Source: a virus. Taken from it: a stretch of DNA of 17,677 nt. The stretch lies in UHGV virus genome UHGV-0132791; one strand, written 5' to 3'. The notes beneath the pieces were generated by a model. It had not been told where the DNA came from, made no database searches, and saw only the letters and a list, made by a program, of their open reading frames with translations. Of the stretch, positions 538 to 17,677 are shown piece by piece. How positions within the stretch are numbered: position 1 is the stretch's first letter; every line of letters starts with the position of its first letter. A program made the translations under genes and the position numbers.

Positions 538-813
538 ATGTCTGTATATACAACCGCAGAATTACTGGCATCGACCCAGCATCACTTTAAGTTCGATCCG
601 CTGTTTCTGCGCCTGTTTTTCCGTGAAACCTATCCTTTCACCACGGAGAAAGTCTATCTCTCACAAATTCCGGGACTGGTAAACATGGCGCTGTACGTTT
701 CGCCGATTGTTTCCGGTGAGGTTATCCGATCCCGTGGCGGCTCCACCTCTGAATTTACGCCGGGTTATGTCAAACCCAAGCACTTAGCATGGCTTTCTGA
801 GGCTTTCGTGTAG
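538..813 (+). pseudogene. E: Major capsid protein gpE, 5' fragment (codons 1-82), interrupted by insertion; ends in 9 element-encoded codons and a stop
   Basis: Translation MSVYTTAELLA…FKFDPLFLRLFFRE.YPFTTEKVYLSQIPGLVNMALYVSPIVSGEVIRSRGGSTSEFTPGYVKPKH matches the lambda gpE N-terminus; similarity stops after codon CAC (781-783), followed by LAWLSEAFV* (TAG 811-813). Confidence 0.9.
773..782 (+). repeat. Left copy of 10-bp att core / target duplication (AACCCAAGCA)
   Basis: Exact 10-bp identity with 11397-11406, located exactly at the E breakpoint. Confidence 0.75.
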
Positions 814-892
814 TTGCTGGTTTTTACACTTAATCTTTTGATAATAAAGAATAAGTTTATCTGGTGCTTTCACTGAATTTTCCTCGTTATCT

Positions 893-930
893 GTGTGTTG
901 CAATCATCTCTGTATTGCAGCTTGTATTGC
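893..930 (+). repeat. Cluster of TGT(A/G)TTGCA direct repeats (candidate integrase arm-type sites), left end
   Basis: TGTGTTGCAA (895-904) and TGTATTGCAGCTTGTATTGC (911-930); a near-identical 20-mer (one mismatch) recurs at 11300-11319 near the right end. Confidence 0.5.
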
Positions 931-945
931 TTTTTGGGGCTAAAA

Positions 946-2181
946 ATGGCTGGCGAGAACAAACTGAGCGACAAAGCGCTTAAAGGATATCTGGGGAAAC
1001 CCAGAGAAAAGCAGATCACCATTGCTGATGGAAAGGGGCTTTCTATTCGTGTGAGTACTAAAGGGGCTGTGAGCTTTGTTTTCTTCTACAGGTTAGCAGG
1101 TGGCCGGGCTGCTCCGGTCTGGCTAACGTTGGGTAAATATCCTGATATGTCACTCAAACAGGCAAGGGAAAAGCGCGACGAGTGCCGTGGTTGGTTGGCT
1201 GACAAACGTGATCCGCGTATCCAGATTAAGATTCAGGCTGAAGAACGCTTAAAGCCGGTCACAGTGGAGGATGCACTAAATTACTGGTATGAAAATTACT
1301 GTAAGGTGCGTCGTAAAACTCATGCTGTAACGCTTGGCAGATTTCGAAAGCATATCTTTCCCTATATCGGTCATTTGCCCGTAAATGACACTCACCTATA
1401 TGAATGGCTGGACTGTTTTGACCGAATTAAACGTAATGCACCAGTTATGGCGGCGTATGTTTTTTCTGACACTAAATTAGCTCTTCGTTTTTGTCGGGTA
1501 CGCCAGTACGCGACGTGTGATGCTTTAAAGGATTTGCGCATGAGTGATGTGGGGCAGATTGCAGGTAAGCGGGATCGGGTTCTGGATGAAGCCGAACTCG
1601 GCCAGCTCTGGAAGGCAATTTTTGTCGAGCCTGATTTAAAACTAATGTCTGAATACACGCGAAAAATGTTTGTGCTTTGTACAGTATTTGGATGTCGAAT
1701 GAGTGAAGCCCGATTATCAGAATGGAGCGAATGGGATCTCGAAAGTTGGGTTTGGACTGTACCAAAAGATCACTCAAAAACTGGTGTTGAAATCGTCAGA
1801 CCAGTACCTGAAATTCTACGACAGTGGGTAACGGATGTTCACGAAGAGACAAAACATACTGGTTATGTGCTGGGAAGTCTGCGAATTAGAGAAAGCGTAA
1901 GCAAGATTGGGGGGAAAATCGGTAAACGTTTGGGCCATGAAAAACAATGGTCACTACACGACCTTAGAAGAACGCTATCTACTCATCTAAGTGATCTCGG
2001 TGTTGAATTTTATGTAGTAGAACAACTGTTAGGCCATGCGCTACCTGGCGTGGCAGGTGTTTACAACCGGAGTAAGTTTATGGCTAAAAAACTGGATGCT
2101 CTGGAACTCTGGACTACATATCTCAATAGCATCGCAGGTGCTGATTCAAAAGTGACAATCCTCAAACAAAAGGTTGGTTAA
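946..2181 (+). CDS. int: Tyrosine site-specific integrase, P4-like family
   Basis: ATG at 946 preceded by GGGG; N-terminal arm-binding-type region (…LSDKALKGY…DGKGLSIRVSTKGAVSFVFFYR…WLTLGKYPDMSLKQAR) and C-terminal catalytic motifs (LHDLRRT…LLGHA…GVYNRS). The ORF track starts at a GTG at 895; the ATG at 946 is preferred. Confidence 0.9.
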   Translation: MAGENKLSDKALKGYLGKPREKQITIADGKGLSIRVSTKGAVSFVFFYRLAGGRAAPVWLTLGKYPDMSLKQAREKRDECRGWLADKRDPRIQIKIQAEERLKPVTVEDALNYWYENYCKVRRKTHAVTLGRFRKHIFPYIGHLPVNDTHLYEWLDCFDRIKRNAPVMAAYVFSDTKLALRFCRVRQYATCDALKDLRMSDVGQIAGKRDRVLDEAELGQLWKAIFVEPDLKLMSEYTRKMFVLCTVFGCRMSEARLSEWSEWDLESWVWTVPKDHSKTGVEIVRPVPEILRQWVTDVHEETKHTGYVLGSLRIRESVSKIGGKIGKRLGHEKQWSLHDLRRTLSTHLSDLGVEFYVVEQLLGHALPGVAGVYNRSKFMAKKLDALELWTTYLNSIAGADSKVTILKQKVG

Positions 2182-2410
2182 CATGAAAAAAATGGCAATT
2201 GTTGATAAAAAGGGTCTGGAGTACATTCCTAACATTGACCGAATGATCCGTGAGAAAGAATGTCGGGAGCTAACCACTCTTGCGAACAGCACACGCTGGA
2301 AGCTGGAGAAGGAAGGAAAATTTCCTAAGCGGATCAAGATTGGTTCCACTGCTGTTGCATATCGTCTTTCAGAAGTGCAGGCATGGATTCGAGGTGAGTG
2401 GGTAGTTTAA
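2174..2410 (+). CDS. alpA: AlpA-family HTH protein (putative excisionase / transcriptional activator)
   Basis: Small ORF overlapping the int stop; …LTTLANSTRWKLEKEGKFPKRIKIGSTAVAYRLSEVQAWI is typical of the AlpA/Xis HTH family. ORF-track start is a TTG at 2174; the first ATG is at 2183. Confidence 0.7.
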   Translation: MVNMKKMAIVDKKGLEYIPNIDRMIREKECRELTTLANSTRWKLEKEGKFPKRIKIGSTAVAYRLSEVQAWIRGEWVV

Positions 2411-2435
2411 ATTATCTCAGAATAAAATATTATGA

Positions 2436-2471
2436 ATTACTGATTTGAGAATTTGTACTCAAATCAGTAAT
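2436..2471. terminator. 14-bp perfect inverted repeat between convergent genes (possible bidirectional terminator)
   Basis: ATTACTGATTTGAG (2436-2449) / loop 8 nt / CTCAAATCAGTAAT (2458-2471), between the alpA stop (2410) and the stop of the minus-strand gene (2480). AT-rich stem with no clean T-run, so weak. Confidence 0.35.
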
Positions 2472-2479
2472 AACATTCT

Positions 2480-3016
2480 TTATAAGAGATTAAATCCAAA
2501 TAAAGAGTAATCATATACCGGGGTGCATTGCATCCCACTGAATATGCTGATGTTTTTTTCTGTTTCTATCCTTTTTTCAATAAGTTGTTGTATATTTTTA
2601 CAGTACAATTTGTGTGTGATGTTATTATCGTAAGCCTGATATAGCAACGTCAATGTTGATGCTATGAAACATGCAGAAAGAAAATGAACTAGTACATGTG
2701 AGCGTTTTTTGGTTGTCCATGATGCATTCGCTTGTGAAATATAAATCATTCTGAGAATGATAATGATGATAGACAGTAACAGACCACTCAATAAAATAAG
2801 TATTGGGTTTGCGTATTTAATTAATGGTTGAGAGCAAAAAACTATTATAGCTCCTGTGACTGCGTATGAGAAAAAGGAGTAATTAAACTTCTTACTCCTT
2901 CTCTCAAGTATTTTAATTTCATCTTGTGTGGGGGGTTTAGATGCCTCCAATATAAGTTTATTAAATGTTTCTGTTATCTTGTTTTTTGTGTTTTTGGCTA
3001 TTTTTTTTAGATTCAT
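2480..3016 (-). CDS. Small membrane protein (two predicted hydrophobic helices), function unknown; AT-rich cargo gene
   Basis: 178-aa ORF with hydrophobic stretches (…AVTGAIIVFCSQPLIKYANPILILLSGLLLSIIIIILRMIYI… and …HVLVHFLSACFIASTLTLLYQAY…); visibly lower GC than its neighbours; GGAG-like SD upstream of the ATG (rc of 3014-3016). Confidence 0.6.
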   Translation of the reverse strand: MNLKKIAKNTKNKITETFNKLILEASKPPTQDEIKILERRSKKFNYSFFSYAVTGAIIVFCSQPLIKYANPILILLSGLLLSIIIIILRMIYISQANASWTTKKRSHVLVHFLSACFIASTLTLLYQAYDNNITHKLYCKNIQQLIEKRIETEKNISIFSGMQCTPVYDYSLFGFNLL

Positions 3017-3366
3017 AGCATTCTAACTCCCTTAACTTATTTATTACTTTCTCTTTATGATAAGAGAGGGGAATGACTTGGTAAAGTGATTTGTCATTAA
3101 TAATGATAATCCTTGCGATAAATATTTCTGCAAGTTATTTACCTGTTTGTTGCTATCTTGTTAAGCGTTGGGTGTGGTTTATGTTTGGAGCGACTTTATT
3201 TAATCGTGATTTTATGGATTTATATTTATATCCTGTAAGATAAGCGCATGTTAGTTCAGGAGTAGTGTCAGATAAAATTATTCGGAGTAGAACTACCTTT
3301 TCTGTTTATTGCCAGTATTTACATAGCAATGCGCCGTAGTTACTCACATCACGGCGCTGATACTAA

Positions 3367-3669
3367 TTATTCAGATTCTTTGGCTTTACGCCGCTGGAGT
3401 TCTTCACGAGCGACGGCTACGAGTTGCCCGATTTCCTCCGCTGCCTTGATGCCGATTTGTTCGACCTTAGCTAAGGCATCCAGTGAAGACACGAGGGGAT
3501 TTTCTCCGCTTCCTTCTGCCTGGCGGCGGGCGATCTCACCGCGCATGGCGGTTACTATGAATCCGGCGTTGCTTTCGCCGTCCAGTTTTACGGATTCCAT
3601 GCCCTCCATAACATCGTGGGGAACCCTGATCGTTGTCATTTGCGATTTTGCATTTTTGTATACAGACAT
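3367..3669 (-). CDS. Putative ribbon-helix-helix (Arc/CopG-like) transcriptional regulator; candidate element repressor
   Basis: 100-aa ORF; the N-terminus has an RHH-like pattern (β-strand TTIRVPHDV, helix, G-E-S-N turn, helix AGFIVTAMRGEIARR); transcribed divergently from the main element operon across a repeat-bearing intergenic region. Confidence 0.55.
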   Translation of the reverse strand: MSVYKNAKSQMTTIRVPHDVMEGMESVKLDGESNAGFIVTAMRGEIARRQAEGSGENPLVSSLDALAKVEQIGIKAAEEIGQLVAVAREELQRRKAKESE

Positions 3670-3877
3670 AGTTAATCACCAATTTGTTATGTGTATATCA
3701 CTATACACAAAAGTGAGATATAAAAACACTTGCAATGTATATCACCACAATATAATGTATATCTCATATTATGGTCGCTATGTATCTCACAATGATCGAT
3801 TCATAAAAACGACGAAACCCGGCAGTGCGCGAACACTAACCGGGCTTCTAACCAAACCGTTAAACGAGGTAACGATT
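3670..3877. promoter_or_regulatory. Divergent promoter/operator region with four ATGTATATC(A/T)C-type direct repeats
   Basis: TGTATATCAC at 3692-3701 and 3736-3745, TGTATATCTC at 3756-3765, TGTATCTCAC at 3781-3790; AT-rich; lies between the RHH gene start (3669) and the first gene of the plus-strand operon (3878). Confidence 0.5.
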
Positions 3878-4243
3878 ATGGCTGGAACACAGCATACCCA
3901 AACTCACCCTAAATTTATATACACCTTTCTGGCACTACACCACGACCGCATGGCAGATGGAGCAACTACGGTACATGTTGCCGCTGACACGCTGGTTGAT
4001 GCCCGCAAGATGGTTAAGGAGATGGGCTATACTGCGGCTTTCTGGAAAGGGCGTGAAGAAAACACGCTGTTTATTCAGAAATGCGAAAACAATTTCATCT
4101 GGCGTTTTATCGCCCTGAGCACCGCACAACCACGCGTAATACACATCGAGGCCGCCAGCGAACAGGAAGCCCGCCAACAATCCCCAACTGGCTGCGTGAT
4201 GATATTCGCCGCCCGTATTCGTCAGGAGGTATGCCGTGCTTAA
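3878..4243 (+). CDS. Hypothetical protein (first gene of element early operon)
   Basis: ATG at 3878 with GAGG 9-12 nt upstream. The ORF-track ORF 3329..4243 extends upstream antisense to the RHH gene; that extension is judged spurious. Confidence 0.55.
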   Translation: MAGTQHTQTHPKFIYTFLALHHDRMADGATTVHVAADTLVDARKMVKEMGYTAAFWKGREENTLFIQKCENNFIWRFIALSTAQPRVIHIEAASEQEARQQSPTGCVMIFAARIRQEVCRA

Positions 4244-4421
4244 AACCTTCCGTGTATTTGCTCGTGCGGTTAACCCACTAGGCCACACAATTGGTATCGC
4301 TCAGAACGTGAAGGCTGTTAATGTTCAGACGGCTATTGCTGCGGTGAGAAGCGAATCATCAGAATATGGCTTATCACAAGTCATTATTTCAGCAGTGTAT
4401 GAATTAAAAGAGGTGCATTAA
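4236..4421 (+). CDS. Hypothetical small protein
   Basis: GTG start at 4236 preceded by a strong AGGAGG (4224-4229); overlaps the upstream stop; 61 aa. Confidence 0.45.
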   Translation: MLKTFRVFARAVNPLGHTIGIAQNVKAVNVQTAIAAVRSESSEYGLSQVIISAVYELKEVH

Positions 4422-4612
4422 TGCAGGAAATTACATTACACGAAGCCGCTGAACGTGCGCACCAGACAGAAATTATTTGCCGCCTTCTTGAGGTATACCC
4501 GAACAAAATTACAGATGCTGATATATCCGCACTGGCGAGCCTACTGGCGCGTCTTTCGGGAAGTGTCGCTAGTTTTTTGATTGAGGAAGAAAGTAAGCTG
4601 GTGGGGGATTAA
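4421..4612 (+). CDS. Hypothetical small protein
   Basis: ATG overlapping the upstream stop (TAATG at 4419-4423), AGAGG SD; 63 aa. Confidence 0.5.
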   Translation: MQEITLHEAAERAHQTEIICRLLEVYPNKITDADISALASLLARLSGSVASFLIEEESKLVGD

Positions 4613-4834
4613 ATGAATACAGAACGGGAAGTCTTTTTTAAATTGTTAGCATGTGCAGAAAGTTCATTAACTTTAAATAATTCAGCAAAAGCAATATTAA
4701 ATATGTGGCTTGATTGCATAAATGACAATGAAGATGCAAATATTGCTTATGGCCTGTTGTCACTTATTGATGAAGCAGCAGAAAAACTCAATGACGCAAT
4801 AAATAGTGCCCTGCTATCAAATAAGTCGAGTTAA
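4613..4834 (+). CDS. Hypothetical small protein (AT-rich)
   Basis: ATG immediately after the preceding stop; 73 aa; lower GC than flanking genes. Confidence 0.45.
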   Translation: MNTEREVFFKLLACAESSLTLNNSAKAILNMWLDCINDNEDANIAYGLLSLIDEAAEKLNDAINSALLSNKSS

Positions 4835-4851
4835 GTCGAGGAATAAATAAT

Positions 4852-5151
4852 ATGGAAATGAAAAATTCTGGCTTTATTGCCAGCGGCCCCGCTCGGCCTG
4901 AATTTATGAACGGCGATATTTACCGCGATAAATACGGCGGCACGGTAACGATTAAAGGCGTGGCAGAACGGCGCATTACTTACCGCCGTGAGGGGTATAG
5001 CTATGACTGCGTGATGCCTGTTTATCAGTTCCGGCGTGATTTTTCCCTGGTATATGCCGCACCCCGCAGTAAGCCCATCAGCAGGGAAAAAGCGCGGGGA
5101 AACATCCAGAAAATGAAAAGCATGATTAACGCATTCAGGGGCAAAAAATGA
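4852..5151 (+). CDS. Hypothetical protein
   Basis: 99-aa ORF with GAGG SD; its stop overlaps the pri-rep start (ATGA at 5148-5151). Confidence 0.5.
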   Translation: MEMKNSGFIASGPARPEFMNGDIYRDKYGGTVTIKGVAERRITYRREGYSYDCVMPVYQFRRDFSLVYAAPRSKPISREKARGNIQKMKSMINAFRGKK

Positions 5152-6899
5152 AACTGGCACCGAACTTAAAAAAACAGCCACGCGACAGACTGACAGAGGT
5201 AATCATCTTTGCAGGTAGTGATGCGTGGAGCCATGCGAAAGAGTGGCAGGAATGGGCGGGTAAACATATTGCCGCCGACGATGTGCCGCCTGTCGTGCTG
5301 GCTGATGAGCAACTGAAAAATATCACCGATTACCGGATCATTGATGAAGATCGTCAGTGTGTGCGTGTTTACCGCGCAGGACATATCACAGAGCACAGCA
5401 TGACGCAGATTGTTACGTTATTGGCTGTGGCTGGAGTGAAGACCGTACACGAATACGCGGGGATTACTGACACCAGCCCCGTGGATTTATCCGACCAGTT
5501 GCCGCGACTCAAAGAGGAATGCGAGCGTGGGGAAAGTCTGGTGCTTAATCTTCCGACGAAGCAAAAGGCGCAACTTTCACAGATGGCAGACAGTGAACGT
5601 GCACAACTACTTGCCGATCGCTTTGATGGTGTGTGTGTTCATGCAGAAAGTGAAATCGTCCACGTATGGCGCGGCGGGGTATGGTGTCCGGTCAGCACAA
5701 TGGAGCTGAGCCGCGAAATGGTGGCGATCTATTCAGAGCACAGGGCCACATTCAGCAAGCGTGCAATTAATAACGCCGTGGAGGCGTTAAAAGTTATTGC
5801 CGACCCCATGGGGGAGCCGTCCGGTGATTTGCTACCGTTCGCCAATGGTGTGCTTGACCTGAAAACGGGGGAATTTTCCCCGCACTCGCCGGAGAACTGG
5901 ATCACCACGCACAACGGCATTGAGTACACGCCACCAGCACCAGGGGAGAACATCCGCGACAACGCGCCAAACTTTCATAAATGGCTTGATCACGCAGCCG
6001 GAAAAGACCCGCGCAAGATGATGCGTATATGTGCCGCGCTGTACATGATTATGGCGAACCGGTACGACTGGCAGATGTTTATTGAGGCCACCGGAGAGGG
6101 CGGTAGCGGTAAAAGTACATTCACACACATAGCCAGCCTTCTGGCAGGGAAACAGAACACGGTAAGCGCTGAAATGACATCGCTTGATGATGCTGGTGGA
6201 CGTGCGCAGGTTGTCGGGAGTCGTCTTATCGTCCTGGCTGACCAGCCGAAATATACAGGCGAAGGCACGGGCATCAAGAAAATCACGGGCGGCGACCCCG
6301 TGGAAATAAACCCGAAATATGAAAAGCGTTTTACGGCGGTAATCAGGGCGGTGGTGCTGGCTACCAACAATAACCCGATGATATTCACCGAACGGGCCGG
6401 AGGTGTGTCACGTCGTCGCGTAATTTTCCGCTTCGACAATATCGTTAGCGAGGCAGAAAAGGACAAGGATTTACCGGAGAAGGTCGCGGCTGAAATCCCC
6501 GTGATTATCCGCAGATTGCTGGCAAACTTTGCTGATCCAGAAAAGGCGCGACATTTGTTGATTGAACAGCGCGACGGTGAAGAAGCACTGGCGATAAAGC
6601 AACAGACGGATCCGGTTATTGAGTTTTGCCAGTTTCTGAATTTTCTGGAGGAAGCGCGCGGCCTGATGATGGGTGGCGGTGGCGATTCCGTGAAGTACAC
6701 GACCAGAAACAGCCTTTACCGCGTCTATCTGGCGTTTATGGCATACGCAGGCAGAAGCAAGCCGCTAAACGTGGCTGATTTCAGCAAGGCCATGAAGCCA
6801 GCGGCGAAAGTTTACGGATGTGAATATATAACGCGCAGGGTTAAAGGACTTACGCAAACCAATGTGACAACAACAGAGGATTGCGACGCGTTTTTATAA
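5148..6899 (+). CDS. Replication initiator, primase-helicase type (P4 alpha C-terminal / PICI Pri-Rep-like SF3 ATPase)
   Basis: 583 aa; Walker A GEGGSGKST (6093-6119), Walker B-like LIVLAD; overall pattern of the phage/plasmid primase P4-family C-terminal domain; followed directly by an iteron array. Confidence 0.85.
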   Translation: MKLAPNLKKQPRDRLTEVIIFAGSDAWSHAKEWQEWAGKHIAADDVPPVVLADEQLKNITDYRIIDEDRQCVRVYRAGHITEHSMTQIVTLLAVAGVKTVHEYAGITDTSPVDLSDQLPRLKEECERGESLVLNLPTKQKAQLSQMADSERAQLLADRFDGVCVHAESEIVHVWRGGVWCPVSTMELSREMVAIYSEHRATFSKRAINNAVEALKVIADPMGEPSGDLLPFANGVLDLKTGEFSPHSPENWITTHNGIEYTPPAPGENIRDNAPNFHKWLDHAAGKDPRKMMRICAALYMIMANRYDWQMFIEATGEGGSGKSTFTHIASLLAGKQNTVSAEMTSLDDAGGRAQVVGSRLIVLADQPKYTGEGTGIKKITGGDPVEINPKYEKRFTAVIRAVVLATNNNPMIFTERAGGVSRRRVIFRFDNIVSEAEKDKDLPEKVAAEIPVIIRRLLANFADPEKARHLLIEQRDGEEALAIKQQTDPVIEFCQFLNFLEEARGLMMGGGGDSVKYTTRNSLYRVYLAFMAYAGRSKPLNVADFSKAMKPAAKVYGCEYITRRVKGLTQTNVTTTEDCDAFL

Positions 6900-6904
6900 T
6901 TTTA

Positions 6905-7145
6905 GACAAAAGCCCTCTACCTCCTCTACCTAAAGAAAATAAATATATATTATTCAATATGATAAGAAGGTAGAGGGTCAGGTAGAAGGCAAATAAAAGC
7001 CCTCTACCTCCTCCACCATGATTAAGGTCATTTGTGAGGGGCGGGTAGAGGATGGGTAGAGGGCCCCGAAAGCCCTCTACCCATCTGAAAGCCGCGCCAT
7101 TACTGACCTGAAAGATGATTAGGTAGAGAGGTAGAGGAGGTGCAC
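6905..7145. repeat. Iteron array / putative element replication origin
   Basis: About 11 copies of CCTCTACC / GGTAGAGG in both orientations (e.g. 6913-6930, 6969-6989, 6999-7017, 7043-7063, 7073-7082, 7122-7140), including the inverted pair GGGTAGAGGGC…GCCCTCTACCC (7054-7082), flanking an AT-rich stretch (6931-6968); immediately 3' of the replication gene. Confidence 0.7.
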
Positions 7146-7185
7146 CACATTTCAAAACTTTTTAAACGAGGGGGTAAAAATAAAA

Positions 7186-7443
7186 ATGCACACATCAGGA
7201 AAACTGAACAAACATATAAAGCCACATTACCGCGCCCTTGATATGGCTGAACATTGGCTAAGGGTGGCGATTAAGGCAATAGATCGCAACGCCGGGGAAG
7301 GATACGCGAAAGCACATCCCGAACTGATAAGCGCATTCATGACAACGGCGGCTGCAAACTTTGCCACGCTGACCGAACGGGAGATTGCCGAAGCGGAGGA
7401 AGTGACAACCATCAATATTAAGTCCGGAGAGCAGGCAGCTTGA
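7186..7443 (+). CDS. Hypothetical protein
   Basis: 85-aa ORF, ATG at 7186 preceded by GAGGGGG; stop overlaps the start of the next gene. Confidence 0.5.
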   Translation: MHTSGKLNKHIKPHYRALDMAEHWLRVAIKAIDRNAGEGYAKAHPELISAFMTTAAANFATLTEREIAEAEEVTTINIKSGEQAA

Positions 7444-7850
7444 CGGCGCAAATAGCAGCTTACGGGCGGCTGGTGGACGACCCACAGGTAAAACATACCA
7501 GCAAGGGAGCACCCATGACACTGGCACGGATGACGGTATCTTTGCCATGCAGCCAGGCAGATGACGGAACGGCGACGATGTGGTTATCTGTCCTGGCGTT
7601 TGGCAGACAAGCCGACGCGCTGGCAAAGCATCACAAAGGCGAACTCCTGAGCGTGGCGGGTAATATGCAGGTGAGCCAGTGGAGCGGACAGAACGGTGAA
7701 ACGCGGCAGCGCTGGCAGGTTATCGCAGACAGCGTAATCAGTGCGCGAACGGTGCGACCTGGCGGGAACAGACGTAAAACCACAGGCACACAGGGCAACA
7801 CACCACCAGCGGGAGGGGATGATCTCTACGGTGACAATATTCCATTCTGA
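7440..7850 (+). CDS. ssb: Single-stranded DNA-binding protein (SSB-like, OB fold)
   Basis: Pattern resembling E. coli SSB (…GRLVDDPQV…, …WLSVLAFGRQADALAKHHKGELLSVAGNMQVSQWSGQNGETRQRWQVIAD…) and a C-terminal tip …DNIPF like the SSB DDDIPF tail. Start is a TTG at 7440 overlapping the upstream stop; exact start uncertain. Confidence 0.7.
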   Translation: MTAQIAAYGRLVDDPQVKHTSKGAPMTLARMTVSLPCSQADDGTATMWLSVLAFGRQADALAKHHKGELLSVAGNMQVSQWSGQNGETRQRWQVIADSVISARTVRPGGNRRKTTGTQGNTPPAGGDDLYGDNIPF

Positions 7851-7858
7851 ACGCACAG

Positions 7859-7878
7859 GCCGGAGAAATCCGGCTTTT
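7859..7878 (+). terminator. Rho-independent terminator downstream of ssb
   Basis: GCCGGA (7859-7864) / GAAA / TCCGGC (7869-7874) followed by TTTT (7875-7878). Confidence 0.6.
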
Positions 7879-8114
7879 ATCAGTTGAGTCCGTCACACCA
7901 CGCAAAAAAAAGGCCGGAATATTCCGACCCTTTCATCACCAAAGAGAATAATTTATGTCTTTGAACTTGTAACGCTGTACAGAATGACACGTAACGCCGG
8001 ATAAATAAACGAAGATTGAAACTTTGCACAATATTGCATAGCAATGCATAAAGATGCCGATCAAGGCAGATGATAAAATTAATACGACACTTTTACTAAG
8101 TATTAAGAGGTTAT

Positions 8115-9155
8115 ATGAGTGATTTATATTCGCCAGCGGAGTTAATACAGACTGTTAATGCTGAAGATATTCAATGGCAGATTAACTCTTTATTTATAAA
8201 CCTGTTTTTTAAGCGAGTCGTTACATTTGAGACGCGGGATATTGCGCTTGATATTATTGACGATCCAGACATCCCGATGGCTGCATTTTGTTCCCCTATG
8301 GTTGGTAGTAAAGTATCACGCGATGAAGGCTACGAATCAAAAGTAATTCGCCCTGGCTACATGAAGCCAAAAAGTAGTATAGACCCAAATAAAATAGCCG
8401 TTCGTCAACCAGGCGTATCACCGGAACAATTCAATGCATATTCATCACGCAATTTCAAAATAAAGCGAGCGATGGTAAGACAAGCGCAGGCCATTCGCGC
8501 ACGTATTGAATGGCTTGCTGTTCAGGCAATCACAACGGGGAAAAATATCATTGAGGGCGATGGCATTGAACGTTATGAACTGGACTGGAATATAAAACCA
8601 CAAAATATTATCACGCAGTCCGGCGGCACGGAGTGGAGCGGTAGAGATTTATCAACATTTGATCCAAATGATGACATCGAAGAGTACGCAGAAATCAGCG
8701 AAGGGACTACAAATATCATCGTAATGGGACGCAACGTATGGAAAAAATACCGCGCCTTTAAAGCAGTAAAAGATTGCCTTGATACTCGACGGGGATCTAA
8801 TTCCGTTCTTGAAACGGCCCTGAAAAATCTTGGGGATTCCGTCAGTTTTAAGGGTTACGTAGGCGATGTGGCTATTGTTGTGTATAGCGGACGTTATACC
8901 GACGAGGACGGAACAGAAAAATATTTCCTTGATCCTGATTTGATGGTTCTTGGCAATACATCACTTCAGGGCATCGTTGCATACGGTGGCATTCAGGATC
9001 CGGAGCTAATCCGAATGGGGCTGACTAAAGCCGAACTCGCACCGAAAAACTACATTGTGCCTGGAGATCCGGCTATTGAGTACGTACAAACGCACTCTGC
9101 ACCACAGCCAATACCGGCCCGCATCAATCGTTTTGTTACCGTTCGCATTGGTTAA
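8115..9155 (+). CDS. Element-encoded major capsid protein, lambda gpE paralogue
   Basis: 346 aa; clearly homologous but divergent from gpE (shared blocks PGYMKPK, ITQSGGTEWS.RD.ST.DP.DDIEEYA, KAVKD.LDTRRGSNS.LETA.K.LG..VS.KGY.GDVAIVVYSG.Y, MVLGNT); strong SD AAGAGG. Confidence 0.9.
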   Translation: MSDLYSPAELIQTVNAEDIQWQINSLFINLFFKRVVTFETRDIALDIIDDPDIPMAAFCSPMVGSKVSRDEGYESKVIRPGYMKPKSSIDPNKIAVRQPGVSPEQFNAYSSRNFKIKRAMVRQAQAIRARIEWLAVQAITTGKNIIEGDGIERYELDWNIKPQNIITQSGGTEWSGRDLSTFDPNDDIEEYAEISEGTTNIIVMGRNVWKKYRAFKAVKDCLDTRRGSNSVLETALKNLGDSVSFKGYVGDVAIVVYSGRYTDEDGTEKYFLDPDLMVLGNTSLQGIVAYGGIQDPELIRMGLTKAELAPKNYIVPGDPAIEYVQTHSAPQPIPARINRFVTVRIG

Positions 9156-9164
9156 GGGGGAGCA

Positions 9165-9506
9165 ATGGCTACTCATTACACTGAACTCATGGCTGGCACT
9201 GAAGCACTGGTTACTACGTTGGGGATATTTTCAGCTAATAAAGGGGTAATTCCTGCATTTACGCCACTGATGCAAGAAGATGCAACTGGTGCACTGGTGG
9301 TATGGGATGGAACGAGCGCAGGCAAAGCTGTTTATGTTTCCGCTGTACAAATCGATACAGCGACAAAAACGCAGGCTCAGGTTTATAAAACCGGCGTCTT
9401 AAATGTTGATGCTCTGAACTGGCCTGAGTCTGTAACACAACTATCAGCAAAAGTTGCTGCGTTTGTTGGCTCAGGTATTTCTGTTCAGCCGCTGGCACGT
9501 GTGTGA
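9165..9506 (+). CDS. Element-encoded head decoration protein, lambda gpD paralogue
   Basis: 113 aa; gpD-like blocks (TPLM…LVVWDGT…YKTG…WPE…) and length; immediately downstream of the capsid paralogue, with SD AAGGGGGAG. Confidence 0.8.
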   Translation: MATHYTELMAGTEALVTTLGIFSANKGVIPAFTPLMQEDATGALVVWDGTSAGKAVYVSAVQIDTATKTQAQVYKTGVLNVDALNWPESVTQLSAKVAAFVGSGISVQPLARV

Positions 9507-9515
9507 GGTACGAGA

Positions 9516-9860
9516 ATGATTGAAAGAGATAGTCAGCTACGAGAGCTATTAGATATCGATGACAAAATGCGCTTAAGCGAGCGTCTTGTCGATATGAATC
9601 AGGTGATGGAACTTACAACCCTGAGTCGCCGTACACTGCTAAACCTTGAGGCTCGTGGAGAGTTCCCTGAGCGTGTGCAGGTTACGGAAGGGCGTAAGGC
9701 TTGGTATTTAAGCGAGGTTGTTGAGTGGATTAACAATATCCCGCGAGCATCAAACTATTGCCTCGTACCCACACCGGAAAAACCTGATGCGGCGTTATGC
9801 CTCAAGATTGAACGCGCCAGGCGTAATGCCCTGAAAGGGCGCAATAAGTTGATTGGTTGA
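9516..9860 (+). CDS. Second AlpA-family HTH regulator
   Basis: 114 aa; …MNQVMELTTLSRRTLLNLEARGEFPERVQVTEGRKAWYLSEVVEWI… is AlpA/HTH_17-like; located between the decoration gene and the cos site. Confidence 0.7.
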   Translation: MIERDSQLRELLDIDDKMRLSERLVDMNQVMELTTLSRRTLLNLEARGEFPERVQVTEGRKAWYLSEVVEWINNIPRASNYCLVPTPEKPDAALCLKIERARRNALKGRNKLIG

Positions 9861-9868
9861 TGAAATTA

Positions 9869-9895
9869 GGGCCCGCTCTGGCTGGCGGGTCCTTT
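9869..9895 (+). terminator. GC-rich hairpin plus short T run after second AlpA-like gene
   Basis: GGGCCCGC (9869-9876) / 8-nt loop / GCGGGTCC (9885-9892) with one G·U pair, followed by TTT. Confidence 0.35.
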
Positions 9896-9913
9896 CCGGC
9901 AATCCGGCAGACT

Positions 9914-9950
9914 ACGGGGCGGAAGGCGCGCGGGTTTTCGCTATTTATGA
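9914..9950. other. cos-like site (cosN region) of the element
   Basis: ACGGGGCGGAAGGCGCGCGGGTTTTCGCTATTTATGA: flanks match the lambda cos left-end sequence as I recall it (…ACGGGGCGGCGACCTCGCGGGTTTTCGCTATTTATGA…), but the central hexamer differs (AAGGCG vs CGACCT); lies about 150 bp upstream of the Nu1-like TerS, as in lambda. Confidence 0.6.
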
Positions 9951-10076
9951 GCATTTTTAGGGGACTGGTGGTGGTTTTGTTGTTCGCTATATCTGTATGA
10001 ATAATAAGAGAAAAACACAATCAACACACCAACCTGAAACAGTAATTAAGTTGTGGTATCAATGAAATTGCACCTG

Positions 10077-10604
10077 ATGAACAAAAAAAACATGGCAAAA
10101 AGTTGCCGTGTAAGCGCCACTGCGTTCGATAAGTGGGGAGTGATTCCCGTCGAGCGTAAGGGCCGCGAGGCGTTTTATGATGTCGCCAGTGTAATAGATA
10201 ATCGGGTTAACAATGCAATCAGCCAGATTACAAACGAAACGGGCGAGATTGATGATGATGAACTCCTACGAGTCAGGATCAGATTGCTGACAGCACAGGC
10301 AGAGGCGCAGGAGCTTAAAAACGAGCGCGAACGCGGCGACGTTATTGATACAGCGTTTTGTATATACGTGCTTTCAAAACTGGCGAGTCAGATTTCTTCA
10401 ATCATGGACAGCCTGCCGCTTGCCATGACAAGGAAGTTTCCCGACATGAAGCCGTCTATGCTGGATGGACTGAAAAAAGAAGTTATCAGAGCCTGTAACG
10501 CATGCGCAAAACTTGACGAAAACATACCGCTGATGCTGTCCGATTATCTGATGGAAACTGCCGGAAACGTACCGGATAAGTTGCAGCTGAATAAAGATAA
10601 GTAA
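10077..10604 (+). CDS. Terminase small subunit, lambda Nu1-like
   Basis: Homology to lambda Nu1 (MNKKNMAKS…YDVASVID…LLTAQAEAQELKNERERGDVIDTAFCIYVLSKLASQISSIMDSLPLAMTRKFPDMK vs Nu1 …LTRAQADAQELKNARDSAEVVETAFCTFVLSRIAGEIASILDGLPLSVQRRFPELE). ORF track begins at a GTG at 10053; ATG 10077 is chosen by alignment with the Nu1 N-terminus. Confidence 0.85.
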   Translation: MNKKNMAKSCRVSATAFDKWGVIPVERKGREAFYDVASVIDNRVNNAISQITNETGEIDDDELLRVRIRLLTAQAEAQELKNERERGDVIDTAFCIYVLSKLASQISSIMDSLPLAMTRKFPDMKPSMLDGLKKEVIRACNACAKLDENIPLMLSDYLMETAGNVPDKLQLNKDK

Positions 10605-10615
10605 CGTAGTACGCT

Positions 10616-10897
10616 ATGACTGAATCCGAAATACTGCGATTAATCCGCCGTGCTTGTGGAATCAGCAAGCAGCATGACGAACAGGCCACGCAGCCGGACA
10701 GCGTGATCGCCGAAAATTACGCGCGTGTTGTTGCTGATGTGATGCGCCGTGATGGTATTGAGCTTAACGGCGTGGATATGCGCGACATACGGATCAGATT
10801 CCTTGAGTTGCTGGCATACCGTCGCCGTTCTCAACAACGAAGGGAGAGCGCGAAAAACACTTATCAGTGGAAGAAGCCGGAACGGTTGCGGCGGTAG
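10616..10897 (+). CDS. Hypothetical basic protein downstream of TerS
   Basis: 93-aa ORF, ATG at 10616 twelve nt after the TerS stop; no recognisable similarity to terminase large subunit. Confidence 0.45.
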   Translation: MTESEILRLIRRACGISKQHDEQATQPDSVIAENYARVVADVMRRDGIELNGVDMRDIRIRFLELLAYRRRSQQRRESAKNTYQWKKPERLRR

Positions 10898-11235
10898 ATT
10901 CCTGATATTCAGGAAAACCACGAATCCGGGGGTTTACTGGCGCGGTTACGGCGGTGACACACACCGAGGCAGAACAATTACCGTAGGTTAAAGCGACAGT
11001 ATTCACACCAAAGGCAGAAATTAGCTGTTAACGTAACTGACTGATATTTTCGGGAACAGCCAACGGCTGAGGCCGGAGCTATAAAAATAGCTTTGGGTAC
11101 AGTCCTCAGTTTTGAGGGATGTTAACCAACTGAATAATAAGCAAACCTCAAAATTGAGTTTTGTATCTGCCTGAGTTATTTCTGTGCTAACTTGCTGATA
11201 TTCCCGATAACGCAAAATTGCGTTGGCTGGTGGGT

Positions 11236-11255
11236 GAGTTGCAGATCTGCAACTC
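11236..11255. repeat. 20-bp perfect palindrome GAGTTGCAGATCTGCAACTC near right end of element
   Basis: Exact dyad symmetry over 20 bp, about 140 bp inside the right att core; contains the TTGCA motif shared with the arm-type repeats. Confidence 0.6.
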
Positions 11256-11299
11256 GGCTATGAAACTTAATAATCGAACAGCATGTAAATTCATTTCTG

Positions 11300-11320
11300 T
11301 GTATTGCAGCATGTATTGCA
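11300..11320 (+). repeat. TGTATTGCAGCATGTATTGCA direct repeats (candidate arm-type sites), right end
   Basis: Matches 911-930 (TGTATTGCAGCTTGTATTGC) with one mismatch, in the same orientation, about 77 bp inside the right core. Confidence 0.5.
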
Positions 11321-11396
11321 ACATAGTCATTCTGGTAGAGATTATGCTCTATTTTTCCTCTTATATCATTCACATACTTACGTCATTGACTCATGT

Positions 11397-11406
11397 AACC
11401 CAAGCA
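11397..11406 (+). repeat. Right copy of 10-bp att core / target duplication (AACCCAAGCA)
   Basis: Identical to 773-782; preceded by an in-frame TAA (11396-11398) that ends the element-side frame. Confidence 0.75.
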
Positions 11407-12187
11407 TGAGGTGAATCCGCAGATGACCCTGCGTCGCCTGCCGGATGAAGATCCGCAGAACCTGGCTGACCCGGCTTACCGTCGTCGCCGTATTATTCGG
11501 CAGAATATGCTGGATGAAAATCTGGCGATTGCCCAGGTCGAAGAGATGCAGGCAGTTTCTGCCGTGCTTAAGGGCAAATATACCATGACCGGTGAAGCCT
11601 TCGATCCGGTTGAGGTGGATATGGGCCGCAGTGAGGCGAATAACATCACGCAGTCCGGCGGCACGGAGTGGAGCAAGCGTGACAAGTCCACGTATGACCC
11701 GACCGACGATATCGAAGCCTACGCGCTGAACGCCAGCGGTGTGGTGAATATCATCGTGTTCGATCCGAAAGGCTGGGCGCTGTTCCGTTCCTTCAAAGCC
11801 GTCAAGGAGAAGCTGGATACCCGTCGCGGCTCTCATTCCGAGCTGGAGACAGCGGTAAAAGACCTGGGCAAAGCGGTGTCCTATAAGGGAATGTATGGCG
11901 ATGTGGCCATCGTCGTGTATTCCGGACAGTACGTGGAAAACGGCGTCAAAAAGAACTTCCTGCCGGACAACACGATGGTGCTGGGGAACACTCAGGCTCG
12001 CGGTCTGCGCACCTATGGCTGCATTCAGGATGCGGACGCACAGCGCGAAGGCATTAACGCCTCTGCCCGTTACCCGAAAAACTGGGTGACCACCGGCGAT
12101 CCGGCGCGTGAGTTCACCATGATTCAGTCAGCACCGCTGATGCTGCTGGCTGATCCTGATGAGTTCGTGTCCGTACAACTGGCGTAA
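11399..12187 (+). pseudogene. E: Major capsid protein gpE, 3' fragment (codons ~80-341), separated from its 5' part by the insertion
   Basis: Translation PKHEVNPQMTLRRLPDEDPQNLADPAYRRRRII…DEFVSVQLA* matches the lambda gpE C-terminal 260 residues almost exactly; there is no start codon or RBS of its own at the homology boundary (the ORF track starts at an internal GTG at 11411). Confidence 0.9.
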
Positions 12188-15572: not shown

Positions 15573-17677
15573 ACCGGTAGGCGATCTGGTCGTTGATTTA
15601 AGTCTGGATGCGGCCAGATTTGACGAGCAGATGGCCAGAGTCAGGCGTCATTTTTCCGGTACGGAAAGTGATGCGAAAAAAACAGCGGCAGTCGTTGAAC
15701 AGTCAATGAACCGACAGGCGCTGGCTGCACAGAAAGCGGGGATTTCCGTCGGGCAGTATAAAGCCGCCATGCGTATGCTGCCTGCACAGTTCACCGACGT
15801 GGCCACGCAGCTTGCAGGCGGGCAAAGTCCGTGGCTGATCCTGCTGCAACAGGGGGGGCAGGTGAAGGACTCCTTCGGCGGGATGATCCCCATGTTCAGG
15901 GGGCTTGCCGGTGCGATCACCCTGCCGATGGTCGGGGCCACCTCGCTGGCGGTGGCGACCGGTGCGCTGGCGTATGCCTGGTATCAGGGTAACTCAACCC
16001 TGTCCGATTTCAACAAAACGCTGGTCCTTTCCGGTCATCAGTCGGGTCTGACGACAGATCGTATGCTGGTCCTGTCCAGAGCCGGGCAGGCGGCAGGGCT
16101 GACGTTTAACCAGACCAGCGAGTCACTCAGCGCACTGGTTAAGGCGGGGGTAAGCGGTGAGGCTCAGATTGCGTCCATCAGCCAGAGTGTGGCGCGTTTC
16201 TCCTCTGCATCCGGCGTGGAGGTGGACAAGGTCGCTGAAGCCTTCGGGAAGCTGACCACAGACCCGACGTCGGGGCTGACGGCGATGGCACGCCAGTTCC
16301 ATAACGTGACGGCGGAGCAGATTGCGTATGTTGCTCAGTTGCAGCGTTCCGGCGATGAAGCCGGGGCATTGCAGGCGGCGAACGAGGCCGCAACGAAAGG
16401 GTTTGATGACCAGACCCGACGCCTGAAAGAGAACATGGGCACGCTGGAAACCTGGGCAGACAGGACAGCACGGGCATTCAAATCCATGTGGGATGCGGTG
16501 CTGGATATTGGTCGTCCTGATACCGCTCAGGAGATGCTGATTAAGGCAGAGGCTGCGTTTAAGAAAGCGGACGACATCTGGAATCTGCGCAAGGATGATT
16601 ATTTTGTTAACGATGAAGCGCGGGCGCGTTACTGGGATGATCGTGAAAAGGCCCGTCTTGCGCTTGAAGCCGCCCGAAAGAAGGCTGAACAGCAGAGTCA
16701 ACAGGACAAAAATGCGCAGCAGCAGAGCGATACCGAAGCATCACGGCTGAAATATACCGAAGAGGCGCAGAAGGCTTACGAACGGCTGCAGACACCGCTG
16801 GAGAAATATACCGCCCGTCAGGAAGAACTGAACAAGGCACTGAAAGACGGGAAAATCCTGCAGGCAGATTACAACACGCTGATGGCGGCGGCGAAAAAGG
16901 ATTATGAAGCGACGCTGAAAAAGCCGAAACAGTCCGGCGTGAAGGTGTCTGCGGGCGATCGTCAGGAAGACAGTGCTCATGCTGCCCTGCTGACGCTTCA
17001 GGCTGAACTCCGGACGCTGGAGAAGCATGCCGGAGCAAATGAGAAAATCAGCCAGCAGCGCCGGGATTTGTGGAAGGCGGAGAGTCAGTTCGCGGTACTG
17101 GAGGAGGCGGCGCAACGTCGCCAGCTGTCTGTACAGGAGAAATCCCTGCTGGCGCATAAAGATGAGACGCTGGAGTACAAACGCCAGCTGGCTGCACTTG
17201 GCGACAAGGTTACGTATCAGGAGCGCCTGAACGCGCTGGCGCAGCAGGCGGATAAATTCGCACAGCAGCAACGGGCAAAACGGGCCGCTATTGATGCGAA
17301 AAGCCGGGGGCTGACTGACCGGCAGGCAGAACGGGAAGCCACGGAACAGCGCCTGAAGGAACAGTATGGCGATAATCCTCTGGCGCTGAATAACGTCATG
17401 TCAGAGCAGAAAAAGACCTGGGCGGCTGAAGACCTGCTTCGCGGGAACTGGATGGCAGGCCTCAGGTCCGGCTGGAGCGAGTGGAAAGAGAGTGCCACGG
17501 ACAGTATGTCGCAGGTTAAAAGTGCTGCCACGCAGACCTTTGATGGTATTGCGCAGAATATGGCGGCGATGCTGACCGGCAGTGAACAGAACTGGCGCAG
17601 CTTCACCCGTTCCGTGCTGTCTATGATGACAGAAATTCTGCTTAAGCAGGCAATGGTGGGGATTGTCGGGAGTATCG
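15565..17677 (+). CDS. H: Tail tape measure protein H, N-terminal ~704 codons, truncated by window end
   Basis: ATG at 15565 overlapping the T stop; MAEPVGDLVVDLSLDAARFDEQMARVRRHFSG… matches lambda gpH; the open frame continues to the end of the window. Confidence 0.9.
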   Translation, partial: MAEPVGDLVVDLSLDAARFDEQMARVRRHFSGTESDAKKTAAVVEQSMNRQALAAQKAGISVGQYKAAMRMLPAQFTDVATQLAGGQSPWLILLQQGGQVKDSFGGMIPMFRGLAGAITLPMVGATSLAVATGALAYAWYQGNSTLSDFNKTLVLSGHQSGLTTDRMLVLSRAGQAAGLTFNQTSESLSALVKAGVSGEAQIASISQSVARFSSASGVEVDKVAEAFGKLTTDPTSGLTAMARQFHNVTAEQIAYVAQLQRSGDEAGALQAANEAATKGFDDQTRRLKENMGTLETWADRTARAFKSMWDAVLDIGRPDTAQEMLIKAEAAFKKADDIWNLRKDDYFVNDEARARYWDDREKARLALEAARKKAEQQSQQDKNAQQQSDTEASRLKYTEEAQKAYERLQTPLEKYTARQEELNKALKDGKILQADYNTLMAAAKKDYEATLKKPKQSGVKVSAGDRQEDSAHAALLTLQAELRTLEKHAGANEKISQQRRDLWKAESQFAVLEEAAQRRQLSVQEKSLLAHKDETLEYKRQLAALGDKVTYQERLNALAQQADKFAQQQRAKRAAIDAKSRGLTDRQAEREATEQRLKEQYGDNPLALNNVMSEQKKTWAAEDLLRGNWMAGLRSGWSEWKESATDSMSQVKSAATQTFDGIAQNMAAMLTGSEQNWRSFTRSVLSMMTEILLKQAMVGIVGSI

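Follow-up and report, generated by a model that had tools for sequence, protein, structure and literature searches.

A small predicted membrane protein in an exchangeable cargo slot of a helper-embedded phage satellite

Immune systems are reported at the 5′ or 3′ ends of phage-inducible chromosomal islands (PICIs; PMC11364771), and a helper-embedded form of these satellites that occupies the capE site, designated the '11capE' type, has been described by Tommasini, Mageeney & Williams (2023; PMC10111431). In that account the zone following alpA is named the 'Bro zone' and is associated with DNA-interacting proteins and immunity RNAs; defence cargo is not described there, nor is the slot considered below presented as a defence hotspot. 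Here we analyse UHGV virus genome UHGV-0132791, a stretch of 17,677 nucleotides (hereafter the window) that corresponds to the head-gene region of a lambdoid prophage. A 10.6-kb element (about 783-11406) is inserted in the major capsid gene of this prophage, a relative of lambda E, in the same orientation as that gene, and is bounded by a 10-bp attachment (att) core repeat, AACCCAAGCA, at 773-782 and 11397-11406. The element is a helper-embedded PICI of the capE site, a satellite type already known. It shares with the '11capE' elements the insertion site in a lambda-E-like capsid gene and the co-orientation with it, as well as the order of integrase (int), alpA, dynamic zone, DUF4222 gene, D5-type primase with single-stranded DNA-binding protein (SSB), and the element's own cap_E and D-like genes (PMC10111431). 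Unlike in the published account, the zone here opens with a swappable, defence-type slot, which in the window is filled by an AT-rich segment encoding a 178-residue protein of an undescribed family, referred to below as ORF178.

The idea of a defence hotspot in satellites is, like the carrier element, already established. As in the immune hotspots of PICIs (at the 5′ and 3′ ends and downstream of pri) and of P4-like satellites, the slot after alpA combines a fixed position and alternative cargo with a near-identical backbone (PMC11364771; PMC9122126). Unlike the cargo of those hotspots, ORF178 lies outside every described defence family, and its anti-phage activity is only putative.

The cargo slot after alpA

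The slot between alpA and the control region of the YlcI-like and Icd-like genes is a genuine accessory hotspot. The 3′ half of int together with alpA was detected in 179 of 5426 complete E. coli genomes, and 68 of these 179 (about 38%) carry the AT-rich segment, always on the chromosome and at 90-100% identity; elsewhere unrelated genes substitute for it, such that the locus is not invariant among relatives. Elements whose int-alpA sequences are 97-99% identical lose homology at 2401-2407, and homology returns at 3322-3329, with the ylcI/icd module of other E. coli elements. The right junction shifts to 3825-4088 where the small regulator gene has been exchanged as well. The borders of the slot in the window are as follows.

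946-2181, plus strand: satellite integrase (Pfam Arm-DNA-bind_3 and Phage_integrase; RefSeq annotation of the identical element).
2183-2410, plus strand: AlpA (Pfam Phage_AlpA; RefSeq); int and alpA make up the conserved left arm, which runs up to the slot.
2402-2410: left slot junction, the last alpA codons, where homology ends in elements with other cargo (L002, L003, L004, L026 and L027).
3367-3669, minus strand: YlcI/YnfO-family small protein, 100 aa (NCBIfam NF041551, E 8.5e-20; phrog_6522).
3670-3877: divergent control region, from which the YlcI-like gene is transcribed.
3878 (likely start), plus strand: Icd-like gene (family models, RefSeq).

Between these borders, the related elements hold genes that bear no relation to ORF178, several of them anti-phage, and the original prediction that this locus is a variable accessory site is borne out by the comparison. 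The alternative occupants are the following.

TIR protein of the CAP12/Pycsar effector type (PF10137, E 1.2e-33).
putAbiC protein (PF16872, E 2.8e-16).
PD-T7-1, split by a frameshift into ORFs of 131 and 316 aa (L004 10056-11404, strain MLI104K2; E 1.2e-114 and 8.8e-32).
DUF2971 protein together with a SWIM protein.
Unknown 305-aa protein.

An evenly spaced sample of elements suggests that ORF178 is the commonest occupant of the slot (about 38%), with the TIR protein second. In MLI104K2, the source of PD-T7-1, the composite of satellite and prophage is strongly decayed: its integrase, terminase and portal genes carry frameshifts, and insertion sequences are present.

The segment that fills the slot in the window stands apart in its composition. 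Its GC content (2411-3330) is 30.9%, compared with 47.2% for the rest of the inserted element, a difference that had been claimed previously and is confirmed here, and with 56.7% for the flanking prophage DNA. No other 920-bp stretch of the 17.7 kb is as poor in GC, the next non-overlapping minimum being 40.5%. The sole convincing gene in the segment is ORF178 (2480-3016, minus strand, ATG start), an intact ORF of the length and strand predicted earlier, whose identical RefSeq entry is the hypothetical protein WP_001049528.1; no mention of WP_001049528 was found in the literature searched. The gene had been described as oppositely oriented to its surroundings. This holds with respect to int and alpA, which lie on the plus strand; it fails on the right-hand side, where the neighbouring YlcI/YnfO-family gene is on the same minus strand as ORF178. 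The features that accompany the gene are listed here.

2436-2449 and 2458-2471: arms of a perfect inverted repeat (14 nt, 100% complementary, 8-nt loop).
3027-3033, minus strand: Shine-Dalgarno-like AAGGGAG, read from the sequence, 10 nt upstream of the ATG at 3016-3014.
3057-3085, minus strand: candidate sigma-70 promoter, TTTACC/17-nt spacer/TATCAT, with 9 of 12 consensus matches.
3017-3330: AT-rich non-coding region upstream of ORF178, about 310 bp, with no Rfam match.
3331-3357, minus strand: GC-rich hairpin GCGCCGT/ACGGCGC with a 13-nt loop, read from the sequence, at the right edge of the cargo and directly past the YlcI-like stop codon.

With its candidate promoter, Shine-Dalgarno site, single gene and putative bidirectional terminator hairpin, the segment is probably an autonomous accessory cassette. 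The 14-bp hairpin at 2436-2471, reported correctly in the original prediction, lies inside the swapped segment between the convergent alpA and ORF178 genes. Its predicted folding energy is -18.5 kcal/mol on the plus strand and -21.2 kcal/mol on the minus strand (z about -5), which none of 200 shuffled sequences equalled, and its stems are unchanged in 15 distinct alleles, the single change being in the loop. Read on the minus strand (2471-2436), the hairpin is followed by a U-rich tract on its 3′ side. From these sequence features, it looks like a bidirectional terminator that forms part of the cargo cassette. Among the same 15 alleles, the region upstream of ORF178 is better conserved than the coding sequence, with 10 variable sites over 3017-3330 versus 37 within the 150 bp of 2631-2780. 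A search for an RNA gene in this conserved 350-bp upstream region, and in the segment as a whole, yielded no Rfam family match.

The organisation of the cassette resembles that of phage morons, an example of which, HK97 gp15, is reportedly an inner-membrane exclusion protein. Like a moron, the segment would be an autonomous unit of promoter (here only a candidate), gene and terminator; it has a deviant composition, is inserted between backbone genes, and is present in some relatives and absent from others. The terminator hairpin, the compositional deviation and the presence/absence pattern are all found, and the promoter is a 9/12 match at chance density. Unlike the HK97 gp15 moron, which belongs to a phage, this unit is carried by a satellite, although one family member is a true prophage moron; the likeness drawn here is one of organisation and class.

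The arrangement is also reminiscent of the lambda cI-rexA-rexB operon, in which the gene for a membrane protein follows, on the same strand, a leftward gene expressed from a divergent control region. ORF178 is likewise downstream of, and co-oriented with, the leftward YlcI-like gene, and read-through expression of ORF178 in the quiescent state is therefore plausible. Since the hairpin at 3331-3357 lacks a U-tract, read-through from the YlcI-like gene into ORF178 would be possible. Unlike lambda rexAB, however, the locus contains no RexA-like partner, ORF178 has no homology to RexB, and a 350-bp spacer with a promoter-like site separates the two genes.

Two further ORFs at this locus were considered and rejected. 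A hydrophobic 50-aa ORF on the plus strand (3091-3243), which might have represented a peptide resembling a type I toxin, is judged to be non-coding because it contains stop codons in other alleles and every substitution in it is non-synonymous. The long plus-strand ORF of 304 aa at 3329-4243, considered as the right-hand 'regulator', is almost certainly spurious, since it overlaps both the YlcI-like and the Icd-like genes, for which family models and RefSeq provide support. This ORF is antisense to the YlcI-like gene, crosses the divergent promoter region, and then enters the Icd-like gene in frame. The gene actually present to the right of the cargo is the 100-aa YlcI/YnfO-family gene.

ORF178 and its family

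ORF178 is a real and constrained gene. It is intact in every copy that was translated, and dN/dS across alleles is 0.2-0.5. The divergence is mosaic: in a comparison of the two main E. coli alleles, codons 79-128 (2631-2780), which cover the end of the second predicted transmembrane (TM) helix, the following loop and the third helix, show dS of 0.37, dN of 0.31 and an omega of 0.83, whereas the flanks show dS of at most 0.14 and dN of at most 0.03. This pattern points to recombinational import of a diverged patch, to relaxed or diversifying change, or to both.

Three hydrophobic segments were computed for ORF178 (residues 48-66, 70-94 and 107-127), one more than the two helices claimed previously. 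The charge distribution favours a topology of three TM helices with the N-terminus inside and the C-terminus outside, under which 16 lysine or arginine (K/R) residues are predicted on the inner side and 6 on the outer; in 15 of 16 family members, the TM2-TM3 loop has 1-6 K/R residues and no acidic ones. An alignment of 16 sequences reveals five invariant residues (P71, C139, Q143, F159 and C164) and two conserved motifs, QP(L/F)xK(F/Y)xNP at the TM1-TM2 turn, which reads QPLxKYANP in ORF178, and C-x3-Q ... (E/D)K..(I/A)F....C in the C-terminal domain. Conservation within the protein is highest in the turn (64-72) and in the C-terminal domain (128-166), and lowest in the N-terminal region, the TM2-TM3 loop and TM3. 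In the predicted topology, both of the conserved parts would probably be periplasmic, where the invariant pair C139-C164 is predicted to be able to form a disulfide. An AlphaFold2 model, computed with an 11-sequence alignment, is confident and all-helical (pLDDT 85.3, pTM 0.58); in it, the long helix that begins as TM3 extends to residue 147, and a short helix at 152-161 then turns back.

The family is sparsely populated. When 1.84 billion representative proteins were searched exhaustively with HMMER, only 11 matches emerged, of which 10 are distant relatives at 25-37% identity: eight proteins of 148-175 aa, a 113-aa fragment, and a doubtful match of 588 aa that was excluded from the alignments. 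A profile search added a few further members, and the distant homologues, which are of similar length, extend down to 21-36% identity. The family is rare, because scans of metagenomes and genome collections yielded almost no additional members. A comparison of the segment DNA with phage genomes produced no match, and a profile search of PDB sequences recovered nothing meaningful.

The homologues occur in a range of genomic settings. Diverged capE-type elements also have family members in this slot. In one such element, from Kosakonia, int-alpA shares about 80% DNA identity with that of the window, the slot has 27-35% GC, and the ORF178 homologue, at 35% protein identity, adjoins a second, unrelated cargo gene. 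The second cargo genes beside the homologue in L026 and L027 are likewise unrelated to each other. One family member represents an opposite-strand insertion between prophage head genes, which is a classic moron position. In Pseudomonas mandelii (L031 6303-8447), a retron type XI gene encoding a reverse transcriptase-trypsin-protease protein (PADLOC RT-Protease_XI, E 1.4e-174) is followed, 49 bp downstream and in the same orientation, by a distant homologue of ORF178, an adjacency that was met only once. Retron XI is a known type of reverse transcriptase-protease fusion (PMC7736814) and is listed by PADLOC as a single-gene system; a membrane partner for it would be new, if the pairing recurred. 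In another Pseudomonas, the homologue resides in an island with a pyocin-S locus (about 3 kb away) and AAA_21/AAA_15 genes; in Pantoea, it is located between a type VI secretion system (T6SS) cluster (TssM/F/G/J) and an HNH gene, near smpB; and a further homologue adjoins an integrase fragment, Imm42 and umuDC. A conserved partner gene was sought across more than 10 contexts and none was found. The lack of a recurring neighbour suggests that the gene needs no dedicated partner and acts either by itself or together with components of the host or of a phage.

Readings of ORF178 function

Guilt by association, together with the predicted membrane topology, points to a possible role in superinfection exclusion or abortive infection (Abi). 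Within this range we tentatively prefer the reading that ORF178 mediates stand-alone phage exclusion at the envelope, as an inner-membrane protein with a periplasmic functional face. In this scheme, ORF178 would be expressed during quiescence of the satellite-prophage composite and would reside in the inner membrane, with a K/R-rich N-terminus in the cytoplasm, three TM helices, and about 50 C-terminal residues in the periplasm, which would form a helical hairpin held together by the C139-C164 disulfide. The conserved periplasmic face, made up of the turn and the Cys-pair domain, would then block genome entry or another early envelope step of competing phages.

Such a role, which we regard as plausible without placing great confidence in it, would be analogous to that of P22 SieA, T4 Imm and HK97 gp15. 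P22 sieA encodes a protein of 164 aa; the gene closes the late operon, is oriented against it and has its own promoter. This layout is strikingly similar to that of the ORF178 gene, and the family member inserted on the opposite strand among prophage head genes resembles it too. ORF178 resembles SieA in being of similar size (178 versus 164 aa), in having several hydrophobic segments, and in being the product of a solitary opposite-strand gene in a temperate element; it differs in that it lacks sequence or profile similarity to SieA (hhalign probability 0.1%) and carries a Cys-pair C-terminal domain that is absent from SieA.

A more far-reaching proposal, which must be considered doubtful, is that ORF178 founds an undescribed family of single-gene, envelope-acting anti-phage proteins, each an inner-membrane protein with three TM helices and a disulfide-stapled periplasmic hairpin that would block genome entry. 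Such a family would be distributed in Gammaproteobacteria among helper-embedded satellites, prophage morons and defence islands, and its hypervariable TM2-loop-TM3 patch might serve to tune specificity or to escape phage counter-measures.

Several observations weigh against envelope exclusion. ORF178 gave only a sub-threshold match to DUF443 (18.8 bits versus a cut-off of 26.2) in scans of Pfam, PHROGs, PADLOC and NCBIfam, the last of which covered ORF178 alone. All 16 family members were compared with Pfam and PHROGs, with no consistent match and, at most, marginal hits here and there to membrane families unrelated to one another; ORF178 and three other members were negative when scanned with PADLOC. 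Structure searches with ORF178 returned no specific fold match or structural analogue, and it is because neither a model nor a specific structure matches that the family is unannotated. No match was obtained by tblastn with three family members against INPHARED phages or with ORF178 against PLSDB plasmids. With P22 SieA and SieB, hhalign found no similarity to ORF178 (probability 0.1-0.2%), and a Pfam SieB match is likewise absent. To these must be added the several homologues at chromosomal sites that lack telling neighbours or an obvious phage link, and a K/R bias that is ambiguous in the most distant family members. Promoter-like sites are not denser than in shuffled sequence (8 found versus 6.4 expected), which renders the promoter assignment weak. 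Finally, the topology, the disulfide and the expression state invoked in the scheme are themselves predictions.

The best surviving alternative, which we nevertheless consider unlikely, is that ORF178 is an Abi membrane effector: a latent pore-forming or depolarising toxin, triggered by infection, that would kill the cell before phage release (compare RexB, the 2TM protein of retron-IV, and SLATT). The putAbiC and TIR genes that fill the same slot in sister elements would be in keeping with such a function, as would the proximity of a homologue to the retron XI gene in P. mandelii and the small size and multi-helical character of ORF178 itself. However, the contexts share no conserved sensor or partner gene, the retron adjacency is a single case involving a system regarded as complete with one gene in PADLOC, and the scans of ORF178 and its family members against PADLOC and Pfam matched no Abi or effector model. 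Furthermore, conservation peaks in the turn and the C-terminal domain and not in the TM helices. Because no partner gene is conserved, stand-alone exclusion fits better than a sensor-plus-effector Abi system.

A reading as an orphan immunity protein, which would protect against a membrane- or periplasm-acting toxin such as a pore-forming colicin, a pyocin or a T6SS effector and would constitute host-benefit cargo in bacterial competition, appears improbable. In its size and its predicted N-in, C-out topology with three TM helices, ORF178 is like what is generally known of immunity proteins against E1-type pore-forming colicins, the gene is solitary in the manner of orphan immunity genes, and the homologues in Pantoea, in Pseudomonas and beside Imm42 are located near a T6SS cluster, a pyocin-S locus and an immunity gene, respectively. 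In none of the contexts, however, is a cognate toxin gene adjacent, and the families of colicin and microcin immunity proteins are absent among the Pfam matches listed, with E values up to 1. Moreover, the alternative occupants of the slot that can be identified are all anti-phage and none is anti-bacteriocin.

A role in the life cycle of the satellite, either in the timing of helper lysis as a holin or antiholin partner or in membrane-associated replication or packaging of the satellite, is quite improbable. A membrane protein encoded by a satellite, co-oriented with a gene of the control region and preceded by a strongly conserved upstream region, might be expected to serve such a purpose. 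Yet ORF178 is present in only about 38% of the elements with the same int-alpA and is replaced by unrelated genes in others, and homologues occur outside satellites as well. The gene is also not near lysis genes or part of any lysis cassette, and a single one of the 16 family members has a PHROG holin match, which is marginal (E 0.029).

That ORF178 is a functionless ORF hitch-hiking in AT-rich, horizontally acquired DNA, as its lack of annotation anywhere and a very low GC content typical of silenced foreign DNA might suggest, is highly improbable given its integrity in all translated copies, a dN/dS well below 1 outside the mosaic patch, the conservation of the family and its invariant motifs down to 21-36% identity, and its good Shine-Dalgarno sequence and terminator-like hairpin.

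The carrier element and the meaning of its cargo

Essentially the same composite of prophage and satellite is annotated in E. coli strain 104 and in many other strains (RefSeq). Beyond the Icd-like gene come several small genes and then, in order, those for the DUF4222 protein, the D5-type primase and SSB. The remaining features of the prophage and of the element are as follows.

150-482: D-like decoration gene of the prophage.
538-~783 and 11411-12187: E-like major capsid gene of the prophage, split.
8115-9155: the element's own cap_E capsid gene.
9165-9506: the element's own D-like decoration gene.
9516-9860: second AlpA-like gene.
10053-10604: Nu1-like small terminase.

A candidate small RNA likely lies antisense to the Icd-like gene, at 3805-3890 on the minus strand, opposite the ribosome-binding site and start codon of that gene. 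The predicted RNA consists of two stem-loops followed by a U-tract (minimum free energy -33.9 kcal/mol, z -5.0), and it gives a sub-threshold match to the Rfam family SymR (35.3 bits versus a gathering score of 61, E 1.6e-4). The block of ~100 bp that contains it is the first conserved sequence to the right of the slot, including in elements of the Kosakonia type, and its terminator stem displays 6 pairs with compensatory changes across 5 sequences. This RNA may represent the immunity RNA of the element or may control a toxic Icd-like protein.

The 3′ end of the element (9900-11400) constitutes a second variable slot, which in the window is occupied by the Nu1-like gene and a 93-aa ORF. In sister elements, this slot holds HEPN and DUF262 genes on the minus strand (L001 19550-21525 and L002 17229-19204) or a 311-aa unknown protein (L003). 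Near the 3′ cargo of L002, positions 17413-17507 give a sub-threshold match to Rfam MicX (34.4 bits versus 75, E 5.7e-4), which is probably due to chance.

Hotspots of satellites and prophages are a productive source of new anti-phage genes. Since the slot after alpA holds TIR, putAbiC and PD-T7-1 genes in sister elements, its commonest occupant, ORF178, has good prospects of being a new defence gene, and it is compact (178 aa), stand-alone and easily testable. Should ORF178 prove instead to be a toxin-immunity or life-cycle gene, the hotspot would not be purely anti-phage. If envelope exclusion is its true function, the protein would represent a new family in a class with few characterised members, and helper-embedded satellites would emerge as protectors of the satellite-prophage composite against competing phages.

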